From NCBI GenBank assembly GCA_046757165.1, contig JBHHXT010000073.1, forward strand, positions 1 through 21,049: DNA of 21,049 nucleotides, in the 5' to 3' direction. Origin of the DNA: a bacterium (lineage in GTDB: Bacteria > Zhuqueibacterota > Zhuqueibacteria > Oceanimicrobiales > Oceanimicrobiaceae). This document shows positions 1,094-20,796 of the stretch, piece after piece; the stretch's first letter is position 1, and each line of letters starts with the position of its first letter. A model generated the notes under the pieces. It searched no databases. It saw only the letters and a program-made list of their open reading frames with translations, and had not been told where the DNA came from. A program made the position numbers and the translations under genes.

Positions 1094-1281
1094 GTCAAGT
1101 TCAGGTTGAAATTGGAATGGGGCTTGTCCAGCGAGTCAGATGTCATTGCAAGGGCGCACCCTCCCGTGCTGCCCGGGAGAGAACTTCTTCACGTTGAAAA
1201 GCATGGGACTCGCGCAATGACAGGCCATCTCTCTTTGACAGTGCAGCCTGCCGAACTTTTGATTTTCTTGCAAAAAAATCA

Positions 1282-1392
1282 AACCGCAAAGACGCAATGA
1301 ACGCAAAGGTCAAAATATGATAGATTATTGACTGATCGTTAGAGCCCGTTTCCCAAAATTAGAACCTTTGCGAGTTTTGCGCCTTTGCGGTT
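1282..1392. repeat. Degenerate inverted repeat built from ~9-nt CGCAAAG-NN units
   Basis: AACCGCAAAGACGCAATGAACGCAAAGGT (1282-1310) matches the reverse complement of 1364-1392 (AACCGCAAAGGCGCAAAACTCGCAAAGGT) at 24/29 positions. A small hairpin ATTGCGGC-TTT-GCCGCGAT follows at 1402-1420. Confidence 0.8.
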
Positions 1393-1479
1393 AATAATTC
1401 TATTGCGGCTTTGCCGCGATTGGAAATGCTGAAGCATTTCACTCCTTGTTCATTCTGCCTTCGATGAATAGTATTTAAT

Positions 1480-1562
1480 CTCACGCAAAGAACACGGAGC
1501 GCGCAGAGTTTGTTTGTTTTTTTGACCTTCATTTCTCTGCGAACTTTGCGGCTTTGCGTGAG
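1480..1562. repeat. Second CGCAAAG/CGCAGAG-unit inverted repeat, immediately 3' of coxL
   Basis: CTCACGCAAAG...CGCAGAG (1480-1508) pairs with CTCTGCG...CTTTGCGTGAG (1535-1562) around a T-rich spacer; the outer 11 bp are perfect. Confidence 0.8.
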
Positions 1563-1571
1563 CCAATACGT

Positions 1572-3929: not shown

Positions 3930-3933
3930 CTCC

Positions 3934-4413
3934 TCAACTCCTTGTTTTCATTTTGTTCGCAGCATAGTGAACAGACTTGACGATATTCACATAGCCGGTG
4001 CAGCGGCACAGATTGCCGGAAATCGCCTGTCGAATATCGTCTTCGGTTGGGTCAGGATTTTTAACCAGCAGCTCGGCCGCGGTCATCATCATCCCCGGTG
4101 TGCAGTAACCGCACTGCAGCCCATGTTCTTCCCAAAATCCCTCTTGCAGGGCGTGCAGTTCGCCATTTTGCTCCAGGCCTTCCACGGTTGCGATTTCCCG
4201 GCCGTTGGCCTGCACCGCAAACAGGGTACACGATTTGACCGCTTGCCCGTCTAACAAAACCGTACACGCGCCACAGTTGCTGGTGTCACAGCCAATATGC
4301 GTTCCGGTCAGGTTCAAATTCTCACGAATGAAATGAACCAGGAGCAATCTGGGCTCGACATCCGCAGAATGTTCCTGCCCGTTGACCGTGATCGTGATCG
4401 ACTTTGTGGTCAT
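3934..4413 (-). CDS. coxS: CO dehydrogenase small subunit, two [2Fe-2S] clusters
   Basis: [12 protein letters not shown]...C and LQCGYCTPG...GNLCRCTGY motifs; sits between coxM and coxL with 2- and 4-nt gaps. Confidence 0.95.
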
Positions 4414-4415
4414 GT

Positions 4416-5291
4416 CTAACTCCCTCCTTTCGCTCTGGCGACTGCTTTGTTCAAGGCCCGCCGGGTTAGGGTGTTTACCAGAGAGCGTTTATATTCTTCC
4501 GTGCCGCGCAAGTCATCGGTCGGGTCTGCCGCCGCCGCGGCCAACTTGCCCGCCTCTTTGGTCGCTGCTTCATCGGGTTTCTTCCCCAGCAGATAGTCGA
4601 TGGCGTCCCGGGCTTTGATGGGGACATTGCCCACATTGGTCAGGCCAATGCCGACGTGTTTGCACGTCCCGTCCGCGTCCAACGTAACTTGTGCGGCGAC
4701 TGCGGCGATGGCGTAATCTCCGACTTTGCGTTCCAGTTTGATGTAGGCACCGCCGCTGTTGGCAGGCGGTGTCGGAATGCGCACCTCGGTCAAGATTTCG
4801 TCAGCGCGGAGCTGCGTCGTCAGCAAGTCGACGAAAAACGCCTCGGCGGGAATGGTTCGGCTGCCGCCGGGCCCCGTTACCACCACCTGAGCTTCCAGGG
4901 CGATCATGGTGGCCGGATGGTCATTCGCCGGGTCGCCGTGCGCCAGGTTGCCGCCCACCGTGGCCATATTTCTGACCAGCGGGTCCGCGATCACCTTTGC
5001 CGTGTCGAGCAGAATGGGATAGTTCTGCGCTACGAGGTTGGATGCCTCCAGGGCCGCCTCTTTGGTCAACGCACCGATGCTCAAGTAGCCGTTCTCTTCC
5101 TTGATATGATCCAGGTCGTCGATCTGACCGATGTCGATGACATAGGGAGGTGCAGCCAGGCGAAGTTTCATCATGGGAATCAAACTGTGCCCGCCGGACA
5201 AGATTTTGGCCTCCTCTCCATATTTTGTCAGCAGGGAGAGCGCCTCAGTGAGCGAGGCCGGCGAAAAGTATTCAAATGACGGTGGAATCAT
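4416..5291 (-). CDS. coxM: CO dehydrogenase medium subunit, FAD-binding
   Basis: [11 protein letters not shown] start, [16 protein letters not shown] and [21 protein letters not shown]-binding motifs; strong SD (AAGGAGGTG) just upstream on the minus strand. Confidence 0.95.
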
Positions 5292-5446
5292 AGGCCACCT
5301 CCTTGGTTTGATGAGTGAGTCCCTGAGTTGTCAACTCGAGAACACTGATGACCCTATTATGTAAGTTACAGCGACAGTCTTTTCTTGGGATTCAGGGGTC
5401 CAGAATTAGGGTGTTCACGCTTTGGCGTGTTTTCCCCTCCACCCCA

Positions 5447-5491
5447 GCAAGCCCCGATTCCTTAATTCTATAGTAATTGAGTCGGGGCAAG
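5447..5491. repeat. Hairpin GCAAGCCCCG...GTCGGGGCAAG, nested in a looser REP-like inverted pair (about 5410-5507)
   Basis: GCCCCGATTC pairs with GAGTCGGGGC, and the inner TAATT/AATTG also pairs. The same terminal sequences recur at 12356-12405. Confidence 0.6.
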
Positions 5492-5738
5492 CTCAAGCTC
5501 GTACACCGACCTCCCCGGTCAGGAACCACTCAGTTCAGGCGATTCATGTGATTTGATCCGGAGTAAATGAGCGCCTAAGCCCCAGCGCGTCGACGCGGAC
5601 TTGGCTCAGTAGAGAGTTCCCTGCGGGCGGGAAAAGGGACGATATTCCACACGGATCAAAAACCCACACGGATTTCTCAAATCAAATTAAATTAAGATAG
5701 TCTTCCGTGTCTGCGTCCCTAATACGATTGACAACAAA

Positions 5739-6185
5739 TTATTTTGATCGTTCGGCGAGCTGTTTTTCCAGGGATTTGAAACCTTGATTCACAAACATCT
5801 TGGCCGCTGCGCCAACAATTCTCTGACCCACCGCAGCAATGGGGCCACCGATTTGATTGCTGGCCGTGTAGTGGAGCCGGGTTTCGTCGCCCTGCGCCTC
5901 GAGCCGGATGAAGACCTCACCGTTTAGAAAGCCACGAGCGCCCTTTCCTGCCAGTGTTAATCGAAAGCTTTCAGGCGGGTCTTTGTCCAGAAGTCTGATG
6001 GCTGTCGAGTAAACTCCCTTGACCGCCGCAATCCCGATGGTCATTTTTGCGTCATACGCGTCCTCTGCAACCTCTTCCATTTGTTCACATCCCGGAATGG
6101 CGTTGGCGATGACCTCTGGGTCCATCAGCAGCTCCCAAACCTGCTGGCGCGGCGCTGACAAAACATGTGAGCCTTCCAAATTCAT
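5739..6185 (-). CDS. coxG: CoxG-like protein (SRPBCC/START fold), without a C-terminal membrane anchor
   Basis: 148 aa; APRQQVWELLMDPEVIANAIPGCE and QIGGPIAAVGQRIVGAAAK are typical of CoxG. AAGGA SD upstream; adjacent to coxMSL. Confidence 0.88.
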   Translation of the reverse strand: MNLEGSHVLSAPRQQVWELLMDPEVIANAIPGCEQMEEVAEDAYDAKMTIGIAAVKGVYSTAIRLLDKDPPESFRLTLAGKGARGFLNGEVFIRLEAQGDETRLHYTASNQIGGPIAAVGQRIVGAAAKMFVNQGFKSLEKQLAERSK

Positions 6186-6862: not shown

Positions 6863-7870
6863 ATGAGTGGGACAGTGGCCGAAACTGTTTTTCGCACCAG
6901 TAAGCTTTGTGGTGATTCTGTTCGTGATCTGAATATCCTCGAAATTCATATGGAGTCGCCTTATACCATCGTGAAGTTGACGAATGGCGACCTGGGCGTC
7001 GCCTTCAACTTTGATCATGAATCGCAGCCCTTCAAGATATGTGAAAATCGACACAACTGGCCAGCCATAGCGACGGGGTTGCTAGATAGAGCCCGGACTG
7101 ATACGCTGCTAACCGACCACGAACCCAGGGAACTCTACGAGCTTTCAGTGCAGGTTGCAACCTCGAGTGCCCTGTCTCAGAGCCAGAATATCCGCGATAA
7201 GGATCTTGCTGACAATGGACTCATTGTTGACGACTTTCCGATCCCACTGGCAGACATTTCTAGAAAGGGAGACACGGTTAGTGTTATCGGTTTTGGGGGC
7301 TATTTCTGTCAAGCGCTATATGACCCCAATGTGCACCAGGTTCTTGTGTCGGATCTTTTGTTGAGTAGATCTTCAGAGATGCAGGAGAACGCTGCCAGGT
7401 TTCTGCAACAGTTTCCGAATAAGCTGCAATTCTTTGACGACGCTGTCAGCAGCGAAGCCATCGTGTTAGAGGCGGACGTGGCGTGCATTACTGCCTCCGC
7501 GCTGTGCAATGGAACGATGGATGGCCTGCTGCAAGCGGCCCGAGAGGGAAAGTGTCGTGAGGTGATCGTGTATGGCCATAGCGGTGGAATGCTCTCAGGT
7601 CCGCTTTTTGAACATGGGGTCACGATCCACCTCAGGCCCAGAATCAAAAGAGCCTTTCTCGCTGAGACGAAGAAGTTCATGTCAAGAATCAAAGACCCTG
7701 AAGTTCGGTCGGTTGTCAGGACGGTACTGCAAGAGGACAATTTTTATGATTTTATTGACGTTAACCTCAAAGCTGTTACCGTGAAAGAAAAACCAATCTC
7801 CTTTGCAAAGATCAGGCGATCTTTGAAGAAGAAAACAACAAATGGGCTTCACTGTTCATGTATTATTTGA
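6863..7870 (+). CDS. DUF364-like protein (N-terminal enolase-like domain plus Rossmann-like domain; family proposed to act in heavy-metal chelation)
   Basis: 335 aa; YTIVKLTNGDLGVAF in the N-domain, TVSVIGFGG, and ADVACITASALCNGTMDGLL...VIVYGHSGG...LFEHGV, resembling the DUF364 pattern ITG(S/T)xxxNGTxxxLL...GPS...LFxxGV. Overlaps the next start codon by 13 nt. Confidence 0.72.
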   Translation: MSGTVAETVFRTSKLCGDSVRDLNILEIHMESPYTIVKLTNGDLGVAFNFDHESQPFKICENRHNWPAIATGLLDRARTDTLLTDHEPRELYELSVQVATSSALSQSQNIRDKDLADNGLIVDDFPIPLADISRKGDTVSVIGFGGYFCQALYDPNVHQVLVSDLLLSRSSEMQENAARFLQQFPNKLQFFDDAVSSEAIVLEADVACITASALCNGTMDGLLQAAREGKCREVIVYGHSGGMLSGPLFEHGVTIHLRPRIKRAFLAETKKFMSRIKDPEVRSVVRTVLQEDNFYDFIDVNLKAVTVKEKPISFAKIRRSLKKKTTNGLHCSCII

Positions 7871-9432
7871 AAAACAAAGAAGTTCAAGAACTATCTGAGA
7901 TCGTACATTTCGAGACAGAATATGACCAAACCTTGCCTTATTTTGCCGATCTGAATTCAACTCTTCAAGCCAACAGCTTGCTCGAGCTCGTGAGCGGTCT
8001 GCAAATCATCCCGGGCAGTGCGGATTCCAGTCTGTTTTGGCATCCGGATACCGCCATGTGGTGTTATGTTGATTCGAATGAAATGCACGTTTGTCAAGAG
8101 TTAGAGCAGACCATTAGATTCTCCACTCTGCAACAGAGATTCCCTCAGTACCGGCGCGAAGATGTAACGAAACTCCTGACTCATTTGTATCGACGCGGCT
8201 TGTTGAAGATTGACGACCAGCCAGGTCTGGATCCCGGCTTTTGTGAAAACGCCCCTTTGTTCAAGAAAGCATATCTGGTTGAGTTGTACATGACGGAAAA
8301 ATGTAACCTGGGGTGCAAGTACTGCTTTGCTGAGGCCGCGCCGGACAATTCGACCATGCCTGTGGAAATCGGCTACCTGGCGATAGATAAGGCCTTTGCG
8401 TTGCCTGCAACGAGGTTTATCATCGAATTCGCAGGCGGTGAGACTTTTGTCGAGTTCGGGACCTTTCAGCGCCTGGTCGAATACATCGCGGTGAAGAAAA
8501 AGCAAACCGGCAAAGATCCGCAAATTGTGGTGCAGTCGAATGGCACGTTGTATCACAAGTCACACATCCGCAAGTTCATTCTAAGACACAACATCATCAC
8601 CGGCGTTAGCATCGATGGGCCGCCAGAGGTACAGAATGCCGTCCGACCAACCGCAGGCGGAAAAGAGAGCTCCGACGCTGTGTTGCGAGGAATCAAGGCG
8701 CTGCAGAAGACGGGCTTTGAGGTCGCTACCATCACGACAGTCAATCGAGCGAATGTCGATAGACCGGAAGAAATTGTAGATTATTTTGTGTCCCGGAATA
8801 TCCACTACGGCCTTTTCAAAGAGATGCTAGGGTTAGGACGCGCCGAAGCGTCGTGGCATGAGCTGGCCGTTGGGCCCGAGGAGTTTTTTGAGTTCATCAA
8901 ACGGGTTCTGGAATACACGACTGAAAACAACATCTTTTTCAGAGATTTGACCACCAAGCGGCTGATCAGGAACCTGCTCGTACGAACACGTAGTTTCCGG
9001 TGCATGCGCTCGCCTTGCAACGCTGGCGTCGACTATTTTGTCATTCGTCCAAACGGAGATATTTATCCGTGTGCGGATCACGTCAGACCGGAGCTGAAAA
9101 TGGGAAACATCAAAGACCCTGAGCCCTTGCACGTTTGCTTTGAGAAACAGCCGACCGTCGTTGAAATGAAGTGCCATCGCAGTGTCAAGAATATTCCCGG
9201 CTGTCGGAGTTGCGACTGGCGACACCTGTGCGAAGCGGAATGTGGCCTGGCTGCTTTGAAAAGCTACGGTACGTTATACCACGCATCCCCCAAGTGCCAG
9301 TTCTACAAAATGGTGTATCCCTATCTGCTGGGATTTTCTCAAAAACATCCAGAGGTGATTTGTGATTATTGGGAAAACGCCGAGGTGGTGAGGTTCAGTC
9401 TCGTGAACGACAAGGGGTCTCTCGAGGCATAA
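7858..9432 (+). CDS. Radical SAM/SPASM peptide maturase 1 with N-terminal RRE (PqqD-like) domain
   Basis: CNLGCKYC (CxxxCxxC), FAGGE, QSNGT and VSIDG. SPASM cysteines: CMRSPC, GDIYPC, CRSCDWRHLCEAEC and a final C. The ~135-aa N-terminal extension has an RRE-like pattern (FWHPDTAMWCYV...LLTHLYRRGLL). Confidence 0.9.
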   Translation: MYYLKNKEVQELSEIVHFETEYDQTLPYFADLNSTLQANSLLELVSGLQIIPGSADSSLFWHPDTAMWCYVDSNEMHVCQELEQTIRFSTLQQRFPQYRREDVTKLLTHLYRRGLLKIDDQPGLDPGFCENAPLFKKAYLVELYMTEKCNLGCKYCFAEAAPDNSTMPVEIGYLAIDKAFALPATRFIIEFAGGETFVEFGTFQRLVEYIAVKKKQTGKDPQIVVQSNGTLYHKSHIRKFILRHNIITGVSIDGPPEVQNAVRPTAGGKESSDAVLRGIKALQKTGFEVATITTVNRANVDRPEEIVDYFVSRNIHYGLFKEMLGLGRAEASWHELAVGPEEFFEFIKRVLEYTTENNIFFRDLTTKRLIRNLLVRTRSFRCMRSPCNAGVDYFVIRPNGDIYPCADHVRPELKMGNIKDPEPLHVCFEKQPTVVEMKCHRSVKNIPGCRSCDWRHLCEAECGLAALKSYGTLYHASPKCQFYKMVYPYLLGFSQKHPEVICDYWENAEVVRFSLVNDKGSLEA

Positions 9433-9445: not shown

Positions 9446-11062
9446 ATGTTTTATCTGAAGAACAGCGACCTTGCGCAGCTTTTTGAAATTGTGTTATTGG
9501 AGAACGCTTTTGATCAAGAGCTGCCTTATTTTGCTGAGCCTGAGCTGACGCCCGCGACCGTCTTGCATCTGACGAACGCGACACTGCAAGCTAAAGATGA
9601 CGGGCACGCCCTGATCTGGAATCCTGAAACGGGGACCTGGTGCTTCATCAGCCCAATGGAATATCCCGTGTGCCAGTCAATGATGGAGCCGATTCGATAT
9701 GGCGAGCTGAGGCAGAAACACCGACTGCAACACGGTGACCAGGACATTGAGTTGACGGAATTCCTGACTCACCTCTACCAACGCGGCTTGCTCGCGTTAG
9801 ACGGCCAGCAGGGCATCGACCAGGACATTTATGCAAATGGGCCTTTGTTCACCGAAGCATTTATTCTGGAGCTGATGCTGACCGAAAAATGTAATCTCGG
9901 CTGCGCGTATTGCTTTGCTGAGGCGGATAACAGCAAAGATGACATGACTTTGGAGCTGGGCAAGCGTGCAATCGACAAAATGCTTGCTCTTCCTGACCAG
10001 AGCTTTGTTGTCAAATTTGGTGGCGGCGAGCCGCTTTCCAGGTTTCGCACCCTGATTCAGTTGGTCGAGTATGCTTTACAAGCGAACAAAACCCAGAGGG
10101 CGGAGGAAGCCGCTATTCTCTTTGACATCACGACCAACGGAACTCTGATCACGGACCGGGTTGTCGAGGCACTAAGGTGCTACCCGATAAGGCTGCAGAT
10201 CAGTTTCGACGGTTTACCTGAAATCCATGATACGGTCAGATATTACCTCAATGGTAAGGGCTCGAGCAGGGATGTGGTGGCGGCATTTAGCGAACTGCAT
10301 CAGAATGAACTCCCGTTTCGGGTGATCACGGTTGTCAGAGGACCACACATCCCAAAAGCAAAAGACCTTTTTCGATACTACGATGATCTGGGAATCAAGC
10401 ACGTTCGGTTCAATCCCATGATCCGGTCCGGTCGCGGCAGTTTCGTCGAGCAACAACATGGCATCACGCCGGAAAGCTATTTCCATTTCATGCAGCAGCT
10501 CGTTGAACACATGGCTGAGCATTTGACCTTCAGTGACGACTCCATCCAATCGATGGTGCGGAATTTGGTCGGTCGCACGCGTGATTTCAGGTGTATGCGC
10601 GGAACGTGTGGTGCCGGCATCACCTATCTCAACGTTGATGCGAAAGGCAACCTTCACCCGTGCGCTTATTTCCGCTCCGCTTCCCGGCACGTTGACCTGG
10701 GGAATGTGGAATCAAATGATTTGTCTTTTCACGCATGCTGCAAGAATGATCCGATTGTGACCAGAATGGCACAGCGCACGGTTCATACGATTGCCAGGTG
10801 CTCGAGATGTCCCTGGCGCCATGTCTGCACCGGTGGCTGCGCCATGGGGGCCTATCAGAAATATGGTAATTTTGACCATCCTTCTGATTTATGCGACTAT
10901 TATGTCAAGATGTACCCGTTTCTGCTGGACACGTTGCACCACACGCCCGAATTGGCAACATTCTTACTGCCAGACATAGAGCAGTGTATGCCAGCCGGCA
11001 TTCCTGCCTCGCCAGCAAATTCCAGGAAGGAGGTGATAGCAAACGCGCAGCAATCGGTTTAG
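9446..11062 (+). CDS. Radical SAM/SPASM peptide maturase 2 with N-terminal RRE domain, paralog of maturase 1
   Basis: CNLGCAYC, FGGGEP, TTNGT and ISFDG. SPASM cysteines: CMRGTC, GNLHPC, CSRCPWRHVCTGGC and a final C. RRE-like IWNPETGTWCFI...FLTHLYQRGLL. AAGGAAGG SD at 9431-9438. Confidence 0.9.
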   Translation: MFYLKNSDLAQLFEIVLLENAFDQELPYFAEPELTPATVLHLTNATLQAKDDGHALIWNPETGTWCFISPMEYPVCQSMMEPIRYGELRQKHRLQHGDQDIELTEFLTHLYQRGLLALDGQQGIDQDIYANGPLFTEAFILELMLTEKCNLGCAYCFAEADNSKDDMTLELGKRAIDKMLALPDQSFVVKFGGGEPLSRFRTLIQLVEYALQANKTQRAEEAAILFDITTNGTLITDRVVEALRCYPIRLQISFDGLPEIHDTVRYYLNGKGSSRDVVAAFSELHQNELPFRVITVVRGPHIPKAKDLFRYYDDLGIKHVRFNPMIRSGRGSFVEQQHGITPESYFHFMQQLVEHMAEHLTFSDDSIQSMVRNLVGRTRDFRCMRGTCGAGITYLNVDAKGNLHPCAYFRSASRHVDLGNVESNDLSFHACCKNDPIVTRMAQRTVHTIARCSRCPWRHVCTGGCAMGAYQKYGNFDHPSDLCDYYVKMYPFLLDTLHHTPELATFLLPDIEQCMPAGIPASPANSRKEVIANAQQSV

Positions 11063-11097: not shown

Positions 11098-11568
11098 ATG
11101 TCCGAGAAAAAGAATGAGAAACAAGACCGCAGAACCTTTCTCAAAGGCGCGGCCCTGGCAAGTGCGGTCGTCATCCTGGAGGGTCCATCTGCTGTTGCGC
11201 AGGAGAGACTAACCAAAGTGCAGCAGAAGAAAAAAGTCCTCTGGGCTGTTCCGCCTCCGCCAGGTGACAATGCGCCTGAGGACGACCTCGAGGAGCTTCA
11301 GCCTTTAATGAAAGCAGCACTCGGCGAAGCCATGTCAAAAGCGGAAGCGGTGATTGAAAAGATGGTCAGGTCCGGAGGCAAGACTAAGACGCTGAATATT
11401 TCCAAGGCATTGGCCGCCGAGGGGTTGACACTGAGAAGCCCCGGAGCCAGAAAGGCAGCCACCACCATCAAAGTTCCTGCTATCATAACGAAGAAGGCCA
11501 GGGAGGCGAAAGCTGAGGGCTGGCATCTTCATGGCCAGATCTCTCAGCATACCCATATGACCTGGTAA
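11098..11568 (+). CDS. Putative RiPP-type precursor A1 (156 aa) with Tat signal and C-terminal core WHLHGQISQHTHMTW
   Basis: AAGGAG at 11083-11088 is 9 nt before ATG 11098 (an in-frame ATG at 11089 is too close to the SD). DRRTFLK twin-arginine motif, hydrophobic GAALASAVVIL, AVA|QE signal peptidase site. Lies directly after two RRE-SPASM enzymes and has a close paralog downstream. Confidence 0.8.
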   Translation: MSEKKNEKQDRRTFLKGAALASAVVILEGPSAVAQERLTKVQQKKKVLWAVPPPPGDNAPEDDLEELQPLMKAALGEAMSKAEAVIEKMVRSGGKTKTLNISKALAAEGLTLRSPGARKAATTIKVPAIITKKAREAKAEGWHLHGQISQHTHMTW

Positions 11569-11655
11569 TTAAGGATGTGTGTGGGATGGTATAGACGAAT
11601 GGGTAAACCCGAATTTGAATCAACGACGGTTCATCCCCTCTGAACCGTGATTATT

Positions 11656-11755
11656 CAGGTAGATAGGCTGTAGAGGCTGTAGGAAGAATCGACGCGTTGG
11701 ATTTGAGCATTGCGCAAAACCGAACAGCCTAATTGCCTACAGTCTAAACACCTGA
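11656..11755. repeat. Imperfect inverted repeat with AGGCTGT/ACAGCCT-type units between the two precursor genes
   Basis: TCAGGTAGATAGGCTGTAG (from 11656) versus CTACAGTCTAAACACCTGA (ending 11755; reverse complement TCAGGTGTTTAGACTGTAG), plus extra AGGCTGT/ACAGCCT copies. Confidence 0.6.
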
Positions 11756-11852
11756 TAGTTACTCAGAACCTATTCAAACTGATTGAATTCTATTCGCTAA
11801 GAGCCAATTGACATAAGCCAATCGCTCAACTTAGATTATGGAGATGAAACCA

Positions 11853-12320
11853 ATGTCCGAGAAAAAGAATGAGAAGCAAGATCGCAGAACCTTTCTCAAA
11901 GGTGCGGCCCTGGCAAGTGCAGTTGTCATCCTGGAGGGTCCGGCTGCAGCTCAGGAGAGACTAACCAAATCGCAGCAGAAGAAGAAAGTCACCTGGGCCG
12001 TTCCTCCTCCACCAGGTGATAATGCGCCTGAGGACGACTTCGAGGAGCTTCAGGCTTTGGTACAAGCGGCAGTCGGCGAAGCCATGTCAAAAGTGGAGGC
12101 GGTGATTGAGAAGATGGTCAGATCCGCGGGCAAGGCTAAAACGCTGAATATTTCCAAGGCGTTGGCTGCCGAGGGGTTGACCCTGAAAAGCCCCGGAGCC
12201 AGAAAAGTGGCCGTCACCATCAAAGTTCCTGCCATCATCATGAAGAAGGCCCGGGAGGCGAAAGCTGAGGGCTGGCATATTCATTCCAGCGCTTCGGCGC
12301 ATAGCCATACGACCTGGTAA
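11853..12320 (+). CDS. Putative RiPP-type precursor A2 (155 aa) with Tat signal and C-terminal core WHIHSSASAHSHTTW
   Basis: GGAG at 11840-11843; first 30 aa identical to A1, including DRRTFLK. By manual alignment there are about 15 substitutions and 1 indel before the last 15 residues, but 7 of the last 15 differ. In-frame ATGs at 11838 and 11844 are alternative starts. Confidence 0.8.
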   Translation: MSEKKNEKQDRRTFLKGAALASAVVILEGPAAAQERLTKSQQKKKVTWAVPPPPGDNAPEDDFEELQALVQAAVGEAMSKVEAVIEKMVRSAGKAKTLNISKALAAEGLTLKSPGARKVAVTIKVPAIIMKKAREAKAEGWHIHSSASAHSHTTW

Positions 12321-12355
12321 TCAATATCTGACAAGTCAACCTCTGTTATTTTTTG

Positions 12356-12405
12356 GCAAGCCCCGGCTGTTGTCCTAATTGTCTTTTGATGACTGTCGGG
12401 GCAAG
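12356..12405. repeat. Hairpin GCAAGCCCCG...GTCGGGGCAAG 3' of precursor A2 (possible mRNA stabiliser or terminator)
   Basis: GCCCCGGC/GTCGGGGC stem; terminal sequences are identical to those of the element at 5447-5491. Confidence 0.5.
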
Positions 12406-12410
12406 ACTTG

Positions 12411-12570
12411 AGATCACAAATTGCAAAGGTCCAAATAACAAATAAGCCCCAATGCCCAATTCCTGAAATCTCAAACAAGACAAAGGTGCTCGATACCGGC
12501 GGTCGTTTGGTTCATTGTGATTTGCAGTTTGAGTTTTATTTGGGTTTTGTTCTTTGATACTTGGGGTTTC
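12411..12570. repeat. Degenerate inverted repeat with ~7-nt periodicity (CAA-rich arm facing a TTG-rich arm)
   Basis: 12411-12477 has CAA about every 7 nt (cacaaat tgcaaag gtccaaa taacaaa ... caatgcc caattcc). 12504-12570 has the mirrored TTG periodicity. Confidence 0.6.
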
Positions 12571-12598
12571 CAGCTCGTCCGGCTTAAGCAATTGAGAA

Positions 12599-14542
12599 AT
12601 GAAGGTTTCATCCTTGTTTGCAAGAATCATCCTGATCGTTCTTTTACTAGCGGCCTCGTCTGTCGGGGTTACTGGGACTCTTTCAGACAAAACGAATGAC
12701 CGTTGGAAATCTTTCACGAGCGTGAACTATGCTCTCGATCTGTTTTCTGATGGCCGCACCTTATGGGTAGCGGGTGGAGGGATTCGATGCTTTGACCTGC
12801 AACAACGAACCCTGAAAGTTTTTCACACTGAGAATGGGCTGATCTCTAATGGCGTGACATGTCTCGCCCAAGACAATTCCGGGAAGGAGCTTTGGATTGG
12901 CTCCGCGGATGGAGTGTGCAGATTGAATGTCGAGACCGGCAACTGGCTTTCTTTAACCACGGAGGATGGCCTGGTCAATAATTGGGTGCAGGCTGTGGTT
13001 GTATGCCATTTCAATCATCAGAAGACGATCTGGTTTGGCACGAGAAAAGGGGTGAGCGTTCTCGAGCCCCGCAAGATGAGCTGGCATCACGATACAGGCG
13101 AAGAGGGGATGTTGCCGGATGATTGGATCACCGCTCTGGCTGTTGATGAGGTGCGGGGATTCGTCTGGGTGGGGACGGCGAAGGGATTGGCTCGATACAA
13201 CTTAGAAGGCCGGCACTGGGCGAAGGTTGGACGCTTCACCAGCTCCATGTGGATTGTCGACCTCATCATAGAGAATGAAACTGGCAACGTCTGGTGTGCG
13301 ACACTCTCACAGGGGATCAAAAAATATGATAGTGCGCAGGCGAAATGGAGTGATGTTTTGAACACGTCGAAGCCATTTCACACGCTCTGCATGCACCTGG
13401 ACGAGAGGCAGCAGACCCTCTGGCTTGGCACCGATGATGGTCTTTGGGCCTACCACCCGGATGCGAATAAAAGTCCCTGGAAAAAGCACAGCCCTGAAAG
13501 GCCTGGGCAGGCCATGGTCATCACGTCTATGCAAATCGATGAGCAGCTGGAGAAGGGTTGGTTTGCTACAGACAGGGGTATCTATGAGTATGAGTTGCAA
13601 GCTCGAACCTGGACCTCTGTCGCACCCAACATCGGGTTGGTTCATAACGATGTAAATGCACTCGCTCTCGATGAACCCTCCGACTCGATCTGGTTTGCGA
13701 CAGATGGCGGAGGCATCAGTCGCTACGACCTCGAAGAGAAAGCGTGGGAGACCTATACCCGGGAAGAGGGTCTCTTTTCTCTTTCCTTCAAATCAGCGGA
13801 CATGAGTGTCAAGGATAAGGCGTTGTGGTTTGGCTCCTCGCAGGCAGTTGGAGTTTTATATCCTGACACCAAACAAATTGCACGTATCGGGCGGGCCGAG
13901 GGCCTGGACGATGCCGCGATTACCGCCATCGCGATAGACGAGCAAAGAGAAGTCGCATGGATTGGAGCATGGGGCAGAGAGGGCGGACTTTATCGATATG
14001 ATTTGAACGATACGAGATCACCCGGCCACAATTATACTTATGGTTTGGCGCACAGGAGCGTGACTTCAATTGCGGTGGCTGGAGATCGGGTTTGGGTCGG
14101 AACAGGCGCTGGCGTGAGCCGATACAATACGAAAACCGACGACTGGCGGACGTTCACTACCGAGGACGGGTTATCCAATAGCGCGGTCATCACCCTGGCC
14201 AGGGACGGGAAGCACCGGGCCGTGTGGGCGGCCACAGAATGGGGTCTGAATTGTTATGATGAGCGGCAGGAACGCTGGCATCAGTTCTTCAAGACAGAAA
14301 ACGGATTGGCTCATAACATTGTTCTGGCCATTGCAATAGATGAAGATAACGACAAAGTGTGGTTCGGAACTGAGGGCTTTGGTGTGACGTGTCTTGACTT
14401 GAAAACAAATACATGGGAGACGTTTACCACCAGGGATGGGTTGGCTAACAATTATGTGCTTTCTATCGTGTTGGATAAGAAGCGCAATTGCACATGGTTT
14501 GGCACGTTGATGGGAGGCGCAAGTCGACTTTGCGATCGATGA
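12599..14542 (+). CDS. Secreted beta-propeller protein 1 (two-component-regulator-propeller-type repeats, 14 counted)
   Basis: Sec-type signal MKVSSLFARIILIVLLLAASSVG. 14 repeats of x-W-(F/V/I)-(G/A)-T..G...YD....W..(F/Y)T..DGL..N.V..IA.D. The protein ends right after the last repeat, with no TM helix or kinase domain. Confidence 0.85.
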   Translation: MKVSSLFARIILIVLLLAASSVGVTGTLSDKTNDRWKSFTSVNYALDLFSDGRTLWVAGGGIRCFDLQQRTLKVFHTENGLISNGVTCLAQDNSGKELWIGSADGVCRLNVETGNWLSLTTEDGLVNNWVQAVVVCHFNHQKTIWFGTRKGVSVLEPRKMSWHHDTGEEGMLPDDWITALAVDEVRGFVWVGTAKGLARYNLEGRHWAKVGRFTSSMWIVDLIIENETGNVWCATLSQGIKKYDSAQAKWSDVLNTSKPFHTLCMHLDERQQTLWLGTDDGLWAYHPDANKSPWKKHSPERPGQAMVITSMQIDEQLEKGWFATDRGIYEYELQARTWTSVAPNIGLVHNDVNALALDEPSDSIWFATDGGGISRYDLEEKAWETYTREEGLFSLSFKSADMSVKDKALWFGSSQAVGVLYPDTKQIARIGRAEGLDDAAITAIAIDEQREVAWIGAWGREGGLYRYDLNDTRSPGHNYTYGLAHRSVTSIAVAGDRVWVGTGAGVSRYNTKTDDWRTFTTEDGLSNSAVITLARDGKHRAVWAATEWGLNCYDERQERWHQFFKTENGLAHNIVLAIAIDEDNDKVWFGTEGFGVTCLDLKTNTWETFTTRDGLANNYVLSIVLDKKRNCTWFGTLMGGASRLCDR

Positions 14543-16515
14543 CAAGAAGGGTGAAGGCCACCGCTGTCCTGGCTGCGTTGTTAGCGGTCACCGCGGTTTC
14601 GGGACTCCGACTTGGCCTTTGGCAGCCGGAAGCGGTGGAATTTCCACACCTTACACTCGAAGCGGCGCACAAAATCCGAGCCGATTGGACGTCATTTGTC
14701 AACACCACACACGTGTCCGGGCTCGCCGCTGACGGAGACCGGGTGTGGACAGTTGGGGGGGGTGTCAGAAGATACGATCTCAGGACAAACAGCTATACCA
14801 CCTTCTATACCGAGCACGGCCTGGCCAGCAATGACACCCGGGCGATCTCGGTTGAAGATGATTTTGTCTGGGTGGTGACAGCCGCAGGAGTCAGTCGCTT
14901 TTCCAGGAAGGAAAAGAAGTGGCAGAACTTCTCTGTGGCGGATGGCCTGGCAGATGATCTGGTTGTGTCTGTTGCGCTCGACAGGGAGAACCGGATCATC
15001 TGGTTTGGCACCTGGGATAGTGGTCTGTCACGCTACGACATTGAGAATGATCGCTGGCAGAGTTACTCGACAAAAGACGGTTTGAGCAACGATTGCGTCA
15101 TCTCTCTGGCTGTTGATTCTCAGGACAACATCCTTTGGTGTGGAACGTGGGGCGGAGGTGTCAGCCAACTGAATCTTGCGACCGGCAAATGGAGAAGTTG
15201 GGACAAAACCTCGAACCTGGCATCGAATACGGTCACCGCGATTGCCGTGCAGACCGATGTGGTATGGTTTGGAACCCTCGATTCAGGCCTGTGCCGTTTC
15301 GACAAGAGCGAGGAGAGCTGGGAAACTTTTAGCGCCGAGAACGGGCTCGGCGGAAATGCGGTCTCCGCAATTGTCGTAGATAGTGCCGGCACCAGCGTGT
15401 GGGTCGGAACCAGAGATGGCGGACTGAGCAGGTTGCGCACCGATGTGGGGAAATGGGAGGTCTTTGGAGGAAAAGATGGGCTCTTGATGGCCATCTCCGC
15501 AGTCTCCCTTGCTGACAACACGCAGCTCCTTTTAGGGACCTGGGGAAAGGGTCTGGTCAAGTTCGATTACCGAAACAACGAGGCGCAGGTTTATGGAACA
15601 ACCAATGAGATCGCCCATAATCAGGTTGTCGGGATGTTTGCAGATAGTGTGAGGAATGCGTTGTGGGTTGGCACGGAAGGGGGAGGGGCATCCAGTTATG
15701 AACTCGCGGTGGGCCAGTGGAACACGTTCAATCGAGAAGCCAAAACGCTTCCGAACAATACGGTGAATAGAATTGTCGTGACAGGTGGTCAAGATGACAG
15801 CCGTGATGACCTCGTTTGGTTTGGCACCCTTGATGGCGTCGTCCGCATAAACCAACAGACCACCTTGACGGTGAGTAGAGAGCTCAGCGAAGGCCTGGTC
15901 GAATCATTTGCTCAGGATCCGGCAGGTAAAGTGTTATGGGTGGGCACCAATAACCAGGGACTTTACCGATATGATTTGCAGGCTGAAACATGGCAGCATG
16001 TCGAAGAGTTGCCCGACTATATCTACTTTTCGCTTGCCTGGGATGAGGCGGAGAAGACCTTGTGGTGTGGAACCGAAGAGGGGATACAAGGGTATGAAGC
16101 AAACTCTCGACGGCCGATCACCTTTGATTCCTTTCCTGCTCCTGATGCTGACATCCGGTCCATCGTTGTGGATGACAAGCACGAAACCCTTTGGGCCGGG
16201 TCATGGCTTTCAGGTTTATTTGGCTATGATAAGCAAACGCGGCAATGGACGCGATATACCAAGGCTGACGGGTTACCAGGTGATACGGTGGTTGGCCTGG
16301 CACTCGACACGCATCGGGATGGGCATGAAGCCTTGTGGGTGGGCACGAATATGGGCGCGGCCAAATACGAATTCAGCTCTGGCGAGTGGGTTCAATTTAG
16401 CACAGCCGACGGGTTGGCCCATAATTTCATCCTGGCCATTGCTCTTGATAACAGCGGTTCCGTCTGGTTTGGGACCTGGGGAGGCGGGGTGAGCAAATAT
16501 GAGAACAGGGACTGA
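14539..16515 (+). CDS. Secreted or membrane-anchored beta-propeller protein 2 (14 repeats counted), paralog of propeller 1
   Basis: ATG 14539 overlaps the upstream TGA (ATGA coupling). N-terminal MTRRVKATAVLAALLAVTAVSGL signal/anchor, then 14 WxGT-type repeats and no output domain. Confidence 0.85.
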   Translation: MTRRVKATAVLAALLAVTAVSGLRLGLWQPEAVEFPHLTLEAAHKIRADWTSFVNTTHVSGLAADGDRVWTVGGGVRRYDLRTNSYTTFYTEHGLASNDTRAISVEDDFVWVVTAAGVSRFSRKEKKWQNFSVADGLADDLVVSVALDRENRIIWFGTWDSGLSRYDIENDRWQSYSTKDGLSNDCVISLAVDSQDNILWCGTWGGGVSQLNLATGKWRSWDKTSNLASNTVTAIAVQTDVVWFGTLDSGLCRFDKSEESWETFSAENGLGGNAVSAIVVDSAGTSVWVGTRDGGLSRLRTDVGKWEVFGGKDGLLMAISAVSLADNTQLLLGTWGKGLVKFDYRNNEAQVYGTTNEIAHNQVVGMFADSVRNALWVGTEGGGASSYELAVGQWNTFNREAKTLPNNTVNRIVVTGGQDDSRDDLVWFGTLDGVVRINQQTTLTVSRELSEGLVESFAQDPAGKVLWVGTNNQGLYRYDLQAETWQHVEELPDYIYFSLAWDEAEKTLWCGTEEGIQGYEANSRRPITFDSFPAPDADIRSIVVDDKHETLWAGSWLSGLFGYDKQTRQWTRYTKADGLPGDTVVGLALDTHRDGHEALWVGTNMGAAKYEFSSGEWVQFSTADGLAHNFILAIALDNSGSVWFGTWGGGVSKYENRD

Positions 16516-16533: not shown

Positions 16534-18285
16534 TTACTCCTGCTCAAAAATCCCCTTTAGATGATACAGGTTATTGCTTGATTCTAACCTCATCATGCTC
16601 CAGTGCTTCTCGTCAGCAATCGTGGGGACCTGCTCCAGGGGTGTGAATGTTAACTCCGGGATGGGTTTGTATCCGCTCAGTTTCATGAACAGGGTCAGAG
16701 GCAGGCCAACTTCCGCCTTGTAAGAGAATGGCGTTGGACGAGGAAATTTCTTGCGGTTAATATAAACCGTTGCACCCTGTGGCGCTGAATCTATTCTAAT
16801 TTCTTTCTTGAACCGTACCAGAACGGCGGAGCCGGAAGCTATGGTTTCGTTGCCGACCTTGAGGCTCCCGTTCCTTAGTACGCTGACGGATTTCTCGGCT
16901 GGCTCAAAGCCCTCCCTGGACAACATCAGGTGATGCGTTCCGGTTACTATCCTGGCAATCTCGACAGGTGTTTCTTGTGGCAGCGGTTGGCCATCCCAAA
17001 TCACCCGGGCGCCCCCCGGCACAGACTCGATGATTAGCGATGAAGGATAGAGCTGGCTGTAAAGGGTCTCTCCAAACCGGGTCCACTTATATGAAAAATC
17101 CAAAGCGCTGAACGCAAGAAAGAGAACCAGAACCGATATCAGGCCCACGATCGCTGCTTTTTTGTGCGACCGGGCAGTGTGTCGCATGACATCGATCACC
17201 GTGATTGATTCCTGGCTCGGCCTCGCTTGAAAAATCATGGAGTGGGATCTGACTTCTTGTGCCGCATTCTCTGCACGGCTGGCCGCCTCCGGGCTTGCGA
17301 CCCTCTCCTTTTTCGCTTGCAGCACACTTTTCTTGTCGGGTTCTTTCGCCGGTTGGTTCAACCCTTGTGCAAAATCGCGCAGCTTTTCATCCAGGGCCCA
17401 GACCTGTCGCGATCTGAGGAATTGAGACAGGTCCTGATACAGGTCCCGCGCCGATTGGTATCTTTCATCTCTTCTCTTTCTCAAGCTCTTCCTGAGGATG
17501 GTTTCCAGAGCATTTGGAATTTCGGCTTCCTTCAAGCTCCCCGCATCAAGGTCAACAGAGGTGATTTCTGTCATGATGTCATAGGCGTGCTCTCTTTTGA
17601 AGAGTCGATCTCCAGTCAGCAGTTCATAAAAGATGACGCCCAATGAGAAAATATCCGACCGCCTGTCCAATGCCACGCCGCGCAGGATGTGCTCCGGAGA
17701 CAAATAGGTCCACTTATCCCGGCGCGTCTTTACATCCACAACTTCGCTCGAGCTGAGTTTCCACTTGGCGGGGCCAAAATCTATCAGCTTCACCTCGCCC
17801 TTGAATGAGATGAGTATGTTGGAAGGGTCGATATTTCCGTGAAGAATGTTCAGGGGTTTATGGGACCTGATATCCTTTAGATTATGGGCATAGTCCAGCG
17901 CTTTGGCGACCTCCGCAACAATATGCACCATCAAATCGAGCTGCAGCTTCCTGCGCAAGAGTTTGCAGATGGTCAGAATACTTTTCAAATCCAACCCATC
18001 GACAAATTCCATAATAGAATAAAAGGTGCCATCCTCGGTCCGACGCAGGTCATACATCTGTACGATGTTCGCATGAGTGAGCTTTGCCGCATTGCGGGCC
18101 TCCTCGACGAACCGATCAACAGAAGTCTTGTCTGTCAGCAAATTGGAATGAATCTTCTTGATGGCGACCGGTTTCTGCAAGGCTCGATCGAGGCCGTAAT
18201 AGAGTACGCTCAATCCGCCTTCTTTGATCTTCGAAACAAGTTCATATTTTCCATCAAGGATAGATCGCGTCCGGATTTTTGTCAT
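16534..18285 (-). CDS. Hanks-type Ser/Thr kinase-like membrane protein with two PEGA-like domains; probable pseudokinase
   Basis: VAIKK, RFVEEA, HANIVQ, IMEFVDG, DFG, YLSPE and SDIFSLG are present, but the catalytic loop reads HGNIDPSN. TM helix AAIVGLISVLVLFLAFSAL. PEGA patterns IESVPGGARVIWDG...TP and IDSAPQGATVYIN...TP. Confidence 0.85.
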   Translation of the reverse strand: MTKIRTRSILDGKYELVSKIKEGGLSVLYYGLDRALQKPVAIKKIHSNLLTDKTSVDRFVEEARNAAKLTHANIVQMYDLRRTEDGTFYSIMEFVDGLDLKSILTICKLLRRKLQLDLMVHIVAEVAKALDYAHNLKDIRSHKPLNILHGNIDPSNILISFKGEVKLIDFGPAKWKLSSSEVVDVKTRRDKWTYLSPEHILRGVALDRRSDIFSLGVIFYELLTGDRLFKREHAYDIMTEITSVDLDAGSLKEAEIPNALETILRKSLRKRRDERYQSARDLYQDLSQFLRSRQVWALDEKLRDFAQGLNQPAKEPDKKSVLQAKKERVASPEAASRAENAAQEVRSHSMIFQARPSQESITVIDVMRHTARSHKKAAIVGLISVLVLFLAFSALDFSYKWTRFGETLYSQLYPSSLIIESVPGGARVIWDGQPLPQETPVEIARIVTGTHHLMLSREGFEPAEKSVSVLRNGSLKVGNETIASGSAVLVRFKKEIRIDSAPQGATVYINRKKFPRPTPFSYKAEVGLPLTLFMKLSGYKPIPELTFTPLEQVPTIADEKHWSMMRLESSNNLYHLKGIFEQE

Positions 18286-18353
18286 TTTCAGATCAAGATA
18301 TGTTCCTGAATGAGCCCATCCCCATTCGGGTGCTGAAATGGTGGCTGGCCGTC

Positions 18354-19808
18354 CTACTCCCGGTCCTGAGCCTCCAATTTGAAAAGGCGGCTCCCGGCCT
18401 TTTGATAATAGAGGTAGGTTGGGTCCGGAGCAACTTGCATCGCCTGTTCATAGTAGCCAATCGCTTTCGGGATATTCCTGATGGTCGGTTCTTTCTCGAA
18501 TCGATATCCTTCGATGAACAACTCCTTGGCTCTCAGCTTTTGCGCCTCCGTCAATATCACTCTTGCTTTGGGTGGGGTGATAGTCAGGGACACCACCCGG
18601 GAAGCCGTCATGCCGGACTCATCCCCCACAGATACGGTGACCTTGTCCTGGTGGTCTGCAGGAACCTCCATCGGAGCCGTATATGTCACTTCACTGTCCA
18701 GGCCCGTAATCGTGCCCAATAGCGCGCTCCATTCATAGCGTAGAAGTTCAGGGTTCGGGCCCCCCGCGACCACAGTCAACCGGCTTTGCTCGCCCGTAGT
18801 CAGAGTGGACTTTTCTGCTGTCAGCTTCACAATCTTTACGGGCGCACGTTTGCGTTTAGATCTTGCTTCTTGTTCGGCGCGCCGGGCCAGCTCGTTTTTC
18901 TGCCGGAGCTGTTCATATCGCTGAACGTGCTCCAAATAGCTCAATGCCACCTTGTTTTCGGGATGCCGTTCAAGCACCCGGTTGATTTTTCTCCGGGAGT
19001 CTTTGTAACGTCCCTTGGCAAAATCGTGCTTTGCTGCACCCAGCAATTCCTGAACTTGCAGCCTGGCTTCAGCTTCTGATTTGAGTTTCAGGGCTTGCTC
19101 ATGATTGGAATCCAGGCGGAGAACCTCATCAAATCTCTCTATCGCTTGTTGAAGTTCTTTTACATTGTCACTTTGACCGAGGAAAGCTGCTGCCGTGCAA
19201 ATATTGTCGATTCTGATTCTCTCATGCACCTCCTCGATCAGGTCGATCACCTCTTGATTTCTCGGGTCGACAGCCAAAGCCACCTCCAGCTCGACCAGGG
19301 CGTCGTTATACAAGGCTCGTTTGTAATACTTGTTGGCGGTGCTCCAGTAGGGTTCTACCGTTCCGTGCTTTTCTGATCTTGTTGCAAAAAAGAAAACGAA
19401 ACTCCCAACAACAGCCACGGCCAGGAAGGGGACAATGTAGCCCCATCGCGACCTTGATCGATTAGGGTCAAATCGGCGATCCAACCAGGGTCGTCTCAGA
19501 GCTTTGCCCTTTTCATTCAGCAGCGCCACGGTCAAAGTTGTGTTTCCTATTTCAATGACGTCATGATGGCGCAGAAGCAGCTCTCCGGTGATCAGATGTC
19601 CATTCACCCGGGTGCCATTGCGGCTGCCGAGGTCTCTCAGGTAAACCGACCCGGCGACCGTTTTGATCTCTGCGTGGGTGGTTGAAGCCAGGTCGTCATC
19701 GAGATGAACACCGTTTTCCGGACTCCGGCCGATGATTACGGCGCCACCGGAAACCGTGTAATGCTTGCCCGTGCCAGGACCCTGGGTAACCGTCAATCTT
19801 ACTTTCAT
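18354..19808 (-). CDS. FHA domain - TM - TPR repeats - Ig-like domain membrane protein
   Basis: FHA phosphothreonine-binding motifs are intact (IGR, STTH, DLGSRNGT). TM WGYIVPFLAVAVVGSFVFFFA. TPR-like helices (ALAVDPRN, VLRLDSNH, VLERHPEN, AMQVAPDP). Beta-rich module LRYEWSA...VTYTAP...VTVSVGD. Confidence 0.85.
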   Translation of the reverse strand: MKVRLTVTQGPGTGKHYTVSGGAVIIGRSPENGVHLDDDLASTTHAEIKTVAGSVYLRDLGSRNGTRVNGHLITGELLLRHHDVIEIGNTTLTVALLNEKGKALRRPWLDRRFDPNRSRSRWGYIVPFLAVAVVGSFVFFFATRSEKHGTVEPYWSTANKYYKRALYNDALVELEVALAVDPRNQEVIDLIEEVHERIRIDNICTAAAFLGQSDNVKELQQAIERFDEVLRLDSNHEQALKLKSEAEARLQVQELLGAAKHDFAKGRYKDSRRKINRVLERHPENKVALSYLEHVQRYEQLRQKNELARRAEQEARSKRKRAPVKIVKLTAEKSTLTTGEQSRLTVVAGGPNPELLRYEWSALLGTITGLDSEVTYTAPMEVPADHQDKVTVSVGDESGMTASRVVSLTITPPKARVILTEAQKLRAKELFIEGYRFEKEPTIRNIPKAIGYYEQAMQVAPDPTYLYYQKAGSRLFKLEAQDRE

Positions 19809-19815
19809 CTGTTTT

Positions 19816-20796
19816 CTACTTCTGCTTCTCTGTTTTCTGCTCTAAGATTCTCGATTCCTGGATTAAGAAATAATCATTCACGGAAAAATCGGGCGGCGTC
19901 GTTGCTGTGACAACAAACAATAGCTCCGAGTTATCTTGCATCTTCTTTTCCCTTCGGAACAGCATCGGGAGAATATCCCCGAGGATGGGGACTTTGGATA
20001 CCGACGAGCCGCGGGAAGTTTTCTTGAGGCCACCCAATATTGACGTGCCACCGTTTTCAACCGATATGGTGCTCTCTGCGGTTCTGGAGGCCAACGCCGG
20101 CTGCCCGGCAATCGGACTGATTTCACTTGCTTCGGTGTGGATCTTGACCAGGATATCACCGGACCCCTGAATTTTCGGACTCACCTCCAGCTTGACGCCA
20201 AACTCCTTGAAAATAGTCACCGCAAATCCATCCGGTCCCACTTCATTGAACGGAAACTCGCCGCCGATCAGGATCTTGCCGGATTCACCGTCGACCGTGG
20301 TAATTCTTTCATTATAAACGACCTCGGCATTTCCTTTGGTCACCCAATAGGAAACGGCGCTGAGAATATTAGACTCCAGCACCAGGTTGGTGGTCACCCC
20401 CTCGAATCCTTTCTCGAGGCCAGCGGCAAATCTGGCCTGAGGGTTGTATTCGGCAAAAGCGCTCCGGCTCACGCTCACGATCAGAATTGAAATCCCGATT
20501 TGGTATTTCTTCGTCCTGTCCACCACCAGATTCACGACCTCTCCCTCGGGGTAAAGGGCCATGATCTTTTCGAACCTCTGAATATCGACATGCGTATAGA
20601 TTTCCCCCTCGACGACGACTTTGCTCCCTGCCTGACGAAAGGTCAACCCCTCGACGTCTTGCAGCAGACTCATCAGCTCCTGAATCGTCACCTCCGTCTC
20701 CTGCGCCGATAGCGCCAGTGAGAAGAGGTGACCTGTCAAGACAATCGTGACCAAACTCATCAGTTTGGCCAGGGAACGAGTTGCATTGTTTTTCAT
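19816..20796 (-). CDS. Compact outer-membrane secretin (type II/III secretin domain, RcpA/CpaC-like)
   Basis: Signal peptide ending LSA|QE, a short BON-like segment (VVVEGEIYT...VVNLV), then secretin C-domain motifs IGGEFPF, FKEFGVKLEVSPKI, ILGGL, SKVPILGDI and SELLFVVT. Confidence 0.82.
   Translation of the reverse strand: MKNNATRSLAKLMSLVTIVLTGHLFSLALSAQETEVTIQELMSLLQDVEGLTFRQAGSKVVVEGEIYTHVDIQRFEKIMALYPEGEVVNLVVDRTKKYQIGISILIVSVSRSAFAEYNPQARFAAGLEKGFEGVTTNLVLESNILSAVSYWVTKGNAEVVYNERITTVDGESGKILIGGEFPFNEVGPDGFAVTIFKEFGVKLEVSPKIQGSGDILVKIHTEASEISPIAGQPALASRTAESTISVENGGTSILGGLKKTSRGSSVSKVPILGDILPMLFRREKKMQDNSELLFVVTATTPPDFSVNDYFLIQESRILEQKTEKQK

Follow-up and report, generated by a model that had tools for sequence, protein, structure and literature searches.

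The window, a stretch of DNA of 21,049 nucleotides, carries on its forward strand, in this order, genes for a DUF364 protein, two radical SAM (rSAM)/SPASM enzymes, two small precursor proteins with closely related C-terminal tails (cores), and two beta-propeller proteins. These features and their surroundings are collected in Table 1.

Table 1. Genes and sequence features of the window (positions count from its first letter).
Feature	Position	Strand	Remarks
Aerobic CO dehydrogenase cluster	113-6185	-	coxG-like, M, S, L, XdhC-like; divergent from the RiPP operon
DUF364 protein	6863..7870	+	Pfam: putative heavy-metal chelation; 13-nt overlap with enzyme 1 start
Radical SAM/SPASM enzyme 1	7858..9432	+	524 aa; CxxxCxxC at 149-156, eight SPASM Cys, ~135-aa N-terminal domain
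Radical SAM/SPASM enzyme 2	9446..11062	+	538 aa; same architecture, 35% identical to enzyme 1
Precursor 1	11098..11568	+	156 aa; twin-arginine signal, predicted helical leader domain (~residues 61-140), core; start from AAGGAG 9 nt upstream and database protein P0001
Twin-arginine motif of precursor 1	11128-11145	+	RRTFLK; cleavage predicted after Ala34
Core of precursor 1 with stop	11521..11568	+	WHLHGQISQHTHMTW then stop; 3' of invariant Gly (11518-11520); from sequence and family comparison
Intergenic repeat	11650-11760		dispersed, inverted ends, REP- or MITE-like
Promoter-like site	11808-11837		TTGACA-18-TAGATT, immediately 5' of precursor 2; consensus match only
Precursor 2	11853..12320	+	155 aa; 85% identical paralog of precursor 1, by sequence comparison
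Core of precursor 2 with stop	12273..12320	+	WHIHSSASAHSHTTW then stop; from sequence
Intergenic repeat	12330-12590		dispersed, inverted ends, REP- or MITE-like
Beta-propeller protein 1	12599..14542	+	647 aa; Reg_prop repeats; hydrophobic N-terminus, signal peptide by inspection
Beta-propeller protein 2	14539..16515	+	~658 aa; Reg_prop repeats; ATGA overlap with propeller 1; hydrophobic N-terminus
Ser/Thr kinase with PEGA domains, FHA-TPR protein, short secretin-domain protein	16534-20796	-	converge on the operon

No protease or ABC exporter is found among the window's annotated genes; a C39 peptidase is encoded on another contig, so that cleavage in trans is possible. No clear operator or terminator was found in the window, where promoter-like sites number 12 against 8.5 expected, and the one preceding precursor 2 could, judged from its match to the consensus, allow this gene to be expressed separately. 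The two intergenic repeats have 47 blastn matches on 40 contigs and 18 on 17 contigs in the genome (G000), at high read depth. In the divergent cluster, CoxL passes TIGR02416 (1257 vs 991 bits). Aerobic CO dehydrogenase requires Cu and Mo.

The preliminary description had presented the core as a motif of 15 residues in which fixed positions alternate with variable ones, preceded by a conserved leader. Between the two paralogs, W1, H2, H4, S8, H10, H12, T14 and W15 are indeed identical (8/15 core residues) and the odd positions from 3 to 13 all differ, but even position 6 differs too and the alternation is imperfect. All six internal invariants fall on the seven even positions, for which the chance is 0.004 in a test made after the pattern had been seen. 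Leader identity, earlier put at ~89%, came on recounting to 128/145 aligned columns (88%), against 8/15 in the core (Fisher p=0.002), and in codon counts over the two paralogs pN/pS stood at 0.055/0.28 (leader) and 0.32/0.29 (core). By this contrast the leader is under purifying selection, with the non-fixed core positions free to change; the identities, the pN/pS values and the cores of homologs all agree with the conserved-leader/variable-core reading. Read in all six frames, the 6.09-Mb genome contains the relaxed motif at these two sites only. Contigs from runs X1 and X2, both labelled hydrothermal vent metagenome, span both copies with zero letter differences and are possibly the window's own source.

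A word-indexed search with the window precursors matched the window's own proteins only. Exhaustive searching brought up 8 distant relatives and a profile search brought up 23 proteins, to which cluster look-ups added further members; the family core set comprises 28 distinct cores out of 42 sequences, which share the motif G-W-H-x-[H/N]-x(5-22)-H-x-[H/N/D]-x-[S/T]-W-stop. The Gly, W1 and H2 are present in 28/28 cores, and H4 in 27/28, the remaining one having Asn. Counted from the end, position -6 is His in every core, position -4 is His in 23, Asn in 4 and Asp in 1, position -2 is Thr in 17 and Ser in 11, and the last residue is Trp in all 28; a hydrophobic residue stands at -7, -5, -3 and -1 in 75, 71, 82 and 100% of cores. 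The first His of both pairs is thus invariant (28/28) and the second is swapped for Asn or Asp only, while the spacer between the pairs varies from 5 to 22 residues and frequently contains Cys pairs and a Gly turn.

The His/Trp register that the preliminary description had predicted for homologs is therefore kept, and other parts of it gave way: Ser occupies position 8, proposed as fixed, in 9/28 cores; the 15-residue length is dissolved by the spacer, and that form of the motif applies to the two window paralogs only; and a strict four-imidazole site is contradicted by the 6/28 cores in which one His is replaced by Asn or Asp. Beyond the signal, the precursors fall under no NCBIfam or Pfam family, and our literature search returned no description of the family, which the supplements of rSAM-RiPP atlases may still list. 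The feature is real and conserved: it is the tail of a small uncharacterised family, very likely of rSAM RiPPs, adjoining two radical SAM enzymes, with the unusual traits of a twin-arginine (Tat) signal, a leader predicted to fold, a predicted fixed-stem/variable-loop hairpin and putative propeller partners.

The twin-arginine motif is found in 25/27 family members, one of the 2 misses being a truncated record, and 8/12 members pass the TIGR01409 cut-off; the window precursor's own signal lies just below (16.6 vs 16.7, or 0.1 bit under TIGR01409, and 21 vs 22.7). The RRxFLK motif and hydrophobic region expected of a Tat substrate are present, TatC is encoded in G000, and the precursors are likely to be exported by this pathway. 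In the AlphaFold models of the window protein and of homolog P0154 alike, a helical domain is predicted with confidence, at a pLDDT of 87-95 over leader residues 61-130 of the latter. The P0154 model further predicts a C-terminal beta-hairpin (strands 139-146 and 149-156, block pLDDT 64-80), and symmetric strand pairing would gather the four His and two Ser on a single face, opposite the Trp and aliphatic residues. The earlier suggestion of four His on one hairpin face is in keeping with this homolog model, but not with that of the window protein itself, whose tail (pLDDT 57 and 36) has no confident fold. Fold searches with the two precursor models gave best Z scores of 3.3 and 3.6 and no Foldseek match at E<=0.001, and Atlas searches, with top scores of 0.87 and 0.77, gave matches that were unnamed or driven by the signal peptide. 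Leader models of the NHLP clan matched weakly, under their cut-offs, in 3/15 proteins scanned (P0126, P0153 and a precursor-like protein from locus L082; TIGR04509 17.9/34, NF038399 15.7/40, TIGR04351 15.3/65), and the window protein had none.

Neither enzyme reaches a family cut-off among its best 25 NCBIfam matches, and their chemistry is consequently not readable from homology. The best match is HxsB for enzyme 1 (156.6 bits, cut-off 370) and PapB for enzyme 2 (162 bits, cut-off 340), the nearest models overall being HxsB, anaerobic sulfatase maturase, DynA, PapB and QhpD-type, with DynA within the top four for both. A search for relatives gave 152 matches at E<=1e-40, and 37 enzymes, taken from 120 of the 152, were aligned; the clade tree was built with FastTree. 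CxxxCxxC and seven SPASM Cys are present in 37/37 aligned relatives and C449 in 31/37; it is Thr in the other 6, including P0044, which is identical in the tree to the enzyme of L082. No Pfam PqqD/RRE domain was detected in any of the 37, and the ~135-aa N-terminal domain, which is conserved, looks RRE-like by its sequence pattern; the enzyme profile matches 8vpo_A from position 39, one match including the N-terminal part. Prediction of a complex between enzyme 1 and the precursor (0.00, 0.47, 0.01) favours neither side.

The enzyme family was not found in the other 166 genomes of its own phylum or, with 3 candidates scored per genome, in 401 genomes of the G167 phylum; in the G168 phylum, 23/351 genomes contain enzymes that are more distant (290-333 bits). 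Twenty regions from the latter (L202-L221) contained no precursor of the window family, and in them tandem rSAM/SPASM pairs of ~500 aa recur, mostly with no small precursor found alongside. Scanning metagenome and genome contigs by pattern gave close enzymes in at least 4 loci (4 of the 159 listed) and mostly unrelated rSAMs.

In locus L004, the sole other locus with a homologous precursor that was read directly, this gene is surrounded by enzymes of the same clade, three in all, and after them come genes for a propeller and a B12-binding protein. Its precursor aligns with the window family over 134 columns, including the Lys-Gly-Trp junction (HHalign 93.8%, E 1.8e-7), and this Tat precursor (L004:5468-5989) has a different core of His-x-Asn/Asp repeats ending Trp-Trp. 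The L004 propeller is a fused PQQ-type/Reg_prop protein. Its best matches in G000 are window propeller 2 (212 bits) and propeller 1 (190), the next contig scoring 111, which argues that the propeller belongs to the system; the DUF364 gene, which was not observed beside the L004 enzymes, is possibly accessory. Of 40 precursor records, 8 share longest-contig size and source exactly with an enzyme of a 58-row clade that includes both window enzymes, against 0/40 for 88 out-of-clade lengths (null mean 0.14, maximum 3 in 10,000); these matches touch both the enzyme-1 and the enzyme-2 branch, and they are indirect and amount to some three groups that are independent. Distribution is sporadic, with the cluster in 1/167 genomes of its phylum; the precursor was not found in 60 relatives, in the other 166 genomes of the phylum save 5 signal-peptide-only matches, or in 301 genomes of the G170 phylum and viral contigs. 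A conserved leader with a variable C-terminal core, and adjacent, recurring rSAM/SPASM enzymes, both as expected of an rSAM/SPASM-modified RiPP, are found together.

Related histidine-rich proteins accompany other enzymes of this kind. Precursor-like proteins with His-x-Asp repeats and no twin-arginine signal lie beside related single rSAM enzymes at L082:3155-3532 and L005:2474-2881, and are likely a sister RiPP group, the L082 protein having the weak TIGR04351 match. Against a background of 15-20%, Asp stands at His +2 for 8/9 His in the L082 substrate candidate and 3/4 in that of L005; Asn, Asp or His follows in this way for 6/7 His in L004 and for only 4/13 in the more distant L212, and the trend is not general. 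The L212 protein (L212:2756-3580, 274 aa), with terminal His-Ser-Asn/Tyr-Ser-Asp repeats, has as neighbours a B12-type rSAM-like gene and three rSAM enzymes of more distant relationship. Short peptides ending Gly-Cys-Gly-Thr-His-x-His directly 5' of distant rSAM/SPASM genes (L119:6044-6199, L109:9406-9540 and L027:785-937) are, by sequence, a candidate for another His-tailed RiPP group.

Sequence, family motif, gene order and recurrence in L004 were observed directly; the remainder of the reading we infer. The precursors are very likely the substrates of the two enzymes. Their helical domain would be an NHLP-like leader, probably bound by the N-terminal domains of the enzymes, each of which would then close one ring, from the His of a pair to the C-beta of the His, Asn or Asp at i+2; for this ring pattern the balance is about even, the alternatives being an ether at Ser/Thr or a ring that joins Trp1 and residue 4. 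We place the His as ring partner and the i+2 residue as source of the C-beta radical because the first His is invariant and the second tolerates Asn or Asp, and an i,i+2 link suits a hairpin since the side chains it joins lie on one strand face. His-x-[His/Asn/Asp] occurs twice in 28/28 cores, in agreement with the aromatic-x-x pattern of triceptides, a pattern of low specificity; the same conservation of His equally fits a metal site with Asn and Asp as substitute ligands.

Precedents exist for parts of this chemistry. HaaB, YhhB and ScaB are described as linking His C2 to a C-beta (in HaaB, His C2 to Ala C-beta; PMC11002830; PMC10288494), YxdB as forming a Tyr-Asp C-beta link (PMC11002830), and dynobactin as containing Trp-Asn(i+3) and His-N/Tyr C-beta links (PMC11002830; PMC10288494), while in bicyclostreptin two rSAMs act on a His-Gly-His core (PMC11002830). 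A link made by an rSAM enzyme between His and His, or from His to Asn or Asp, is not among the linkages in the excerpted literature surveyed. Copper binding by noursin is reported to need its His cross-link (PMC11002830), and a His cross-link and a metal site are therefore compatible. Thioether chemistry is unlikely because the window cores have no Cys, and sactipeptide or ranthipeptide formation was rejected on this ground, neither core offering a donor Cys to enzymes with eight SPASM Cys; CteB is described with an open auxiliary cluster site (PMC8172795). An epimerase of the proteusin type, producing D/L alternation, was set aside, as the enzymes carry a full SPASM domain.

The product would be a stapled beta-hairpin passed through the Tat pathway, after which the core would either be released at the invariant Gly-Trp junction or be retained on the folded domain. 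Its expected destination, judged from the signal, is the cell envelope; neither an exporter nor a protease is encoded in the cluster. General-export signals are described as rare among RiPP precursors (PMC11626156), and our literature search found none uniting a Tat signal with rSAM maturation. Once exported, the product may dock on the co-encoded propellers, a step to which we give slightly less than an even chance, and would bind metal outside the cytoplasm on its His/Ser/Thr face. Binding of Cu, Zn or Ni is the likeliest role, although we hold it tentatively: it is suggested by the histidine face, the DUF364 neighbour, the vent habitat and the bufferin precedent, all circumstantial. Taken whole, the reading in which the enzymes cross-link the first His of each pair to the i+2 beta-carbon, giving a stapled, Tat-exported, metal-binding hairpin, is in our estimate evenly poised between right and wrong.

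By analogy, the cluster would work most like the His-containing cyclophane RiPPs, and by the tests run it is not in the HXS, dynobactin, triceptide-maturase or bufferin families. His-containing triceptides (HaaB, YhhB, ScaB; also YxdB) share with it a SPASM rSAM acting on an aromatic-x-x triad and provide precedent for a His ring that acts as acceptor and for donation by Asp C-beta (PMC11002830), but here there are two enzymes, a twin-arginine signal, a variable-loop hairpin and propeller partners; scores for triceptide maturases were low (GrrM 81 and 110/310, AmcB 77 and 90/425, YhhB 106/445 for enzyme 2). Dynobactin likewise has two separate rings (Trp to i+3, and His to a ring partner two residues apart), an aromatic C-terminus and, in DynA, a top-four match to both enzymes, whereas the window system has a spacer of 5-22 residues, two enzymes and no exporter in the cluster; DynA (NF041298) scored 131 and 145 bits/450, and Tyr at His+2 occurs in 0/28 cores. 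Bicyclostreptin (HghB/HghC) resembles it in two rSAMs acting on a C-terminal His-x-His (PMC11002830), and is set apart by description rather than by enzyme sequence: it is described as streptococcal and quorum-sensing controlled, with a separate RRE protein and one His-Gly-His, in contrast to the two His pairs, long folded leader and signal peptide found here.

In HXS (HxsABCD), too, paired rSAMs mature an exported His-containing protein (PMC13128918), and HxsB is the nearest model to enzyme 1, but the window motif is C-terminal and framed by Trp, and no HxsC-type match was found among the best 25. Membership was rejected at HxsB scores of 157 and 124/370, the presumed effector having neither a peptidoglycan-binding domain nor five basic HxS repeats; HxsD (TIGR03976) had no match in G000, and none in the control genomes either. 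Bufferins are RiPP precursors with a general-export signal peptide and a proposed metal role (PMC11626156), yet theirs is a Sec signal, with Cys-derived thiooxazoles and an MNIO, as against a Tat signal and rSAM enzymes here, and no MNIO/DUF692 gene was present among the window proteins scanned. QHNDH (QhpBCD) similarly joins an rSAM/SPASM-modified small protein to a beta-propeller protein (PMC8172795); its Cys thioethers, CTQ cofactor and dihaem subunit are not indicated here.

Other explanations were weighed against this reading. The enzymes may modify the precursors in such a way that the His remain free metal ligands and the rings use Trp1 and residue 4, Trp and Trp across the hairpin, or a Ser/Thr hydroxyl. 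Both Trp and the Ser/Thr position are invariant in 28/28 cores, W-x-x-[H/N] has the Trp-Asn(i+3) spacing of dynobactin (PMC11002830), an ether from Ser-O to His C-beta is described in bicyclostreptin (PMC11002830), and the strand limits predicted for P0154 would imply Trp-Trp and His-Ser cross-strand pairs, the register being inferred. The substrate candidates of L082 and L005, with His-x-Asp repeats and no framing Trp, count against rings of this kind, which we regard as unlikely but credible. It is distinctly unlikely that the modified protein instead serves a periplasmic enzyme or receptor as its small subunit, exported folded and docked on the propellers with a Trp/His cofactor or metal centre, as in QHNDH. 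This would explain why a propeller is kept with the cluster in L004, why the leader is predicted to fold as a domain in P0154 and why the window annotation has no protease or ABC exporter, and in QHNDH an rSAM-modified small subunit is indeed coupled to a beta-propeller subunit (PMC8172795). A variable loop of 5-22 residues and two diverged paralogs would, however, suit a diversifying ligand better, the QhpD model scored 89 and 151 against a cut-off of 453, and Cys is absent from the window cores.

An envelope defence like HXS, in which paired rSAMs would mature an exported His-rich effector that blocks entry of phage DNA, is improbable, since both enzymes score far under the cut-off of HxsB, the second is a paralog of the first with HxsC not within the best 25 matches, peptidoglycan-binding domain and basic HxS repeats are lacking, and PADLOC yields generic viperin rSAM matches only. 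In its favour are the two rSAMs and exported His-containing protein that HXS has (PMC13128918; PMC9062424), HxsB as the best NCBIfam match of both enzyme 1 and P0009, the patchy distribution (1/167 phylum genomes), and a terminal His-x-[Ser/Thr] in 23/28 cores. Alternating polar and hydrophobic residues, terminal Trp and the rank of DynA could also point to a core released as an antibacterial cyclophane that mimics a beta-strand in the manner of BamA inhibitors, with the propellers as binding or immunity proteins; bamabactins are described as working by beta-beta pairing (10.1101/2024.12.16.628070). Xenorceptide clusters are described with both an exporter and a protease (10.1101/2024.12.16.628070), neither of which is in this cluster, Tat delivery would leave the product in the producer's own periplasm, and a hairpin with both edges paired would mimic a strand poorly, making such a role very improbable. 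Finally, the precursors might be unmodified, ordinary exported His-rich metal-binding proteins, with the enzymes acting elsewhere, as there is no direct evidence of modification and Pfam detected no RRE; the recurrent linkage to one enzyme clade, the NHLP-like leader matches and the lack of any other candidate substrate in the window render this extremely improbable.

The most specific form of the stapled-hairpin reading, in which the two rSAMs lock both hairpin stems with His-His cross-links around a variable, often Cys-paired loop and the product is exported folded by Tat and docked on the propellers as a histidine-face metal centre, is on the whole rather unlikely. If true, it would mean that the cross-link, the route by which an rSAM RiPP is exported and the type of envelope metalloprotein are all new. 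Should the enzymes staple the two stems and accept any loop of 5-22 residues between them, nature would have supplied tools for building rigid hairpin libraries. The wider enzyme family, which passes no named model and whose neighbours repeatedly carry His-x-Asp/Asn/His, forms an orphan group related to HxsB.
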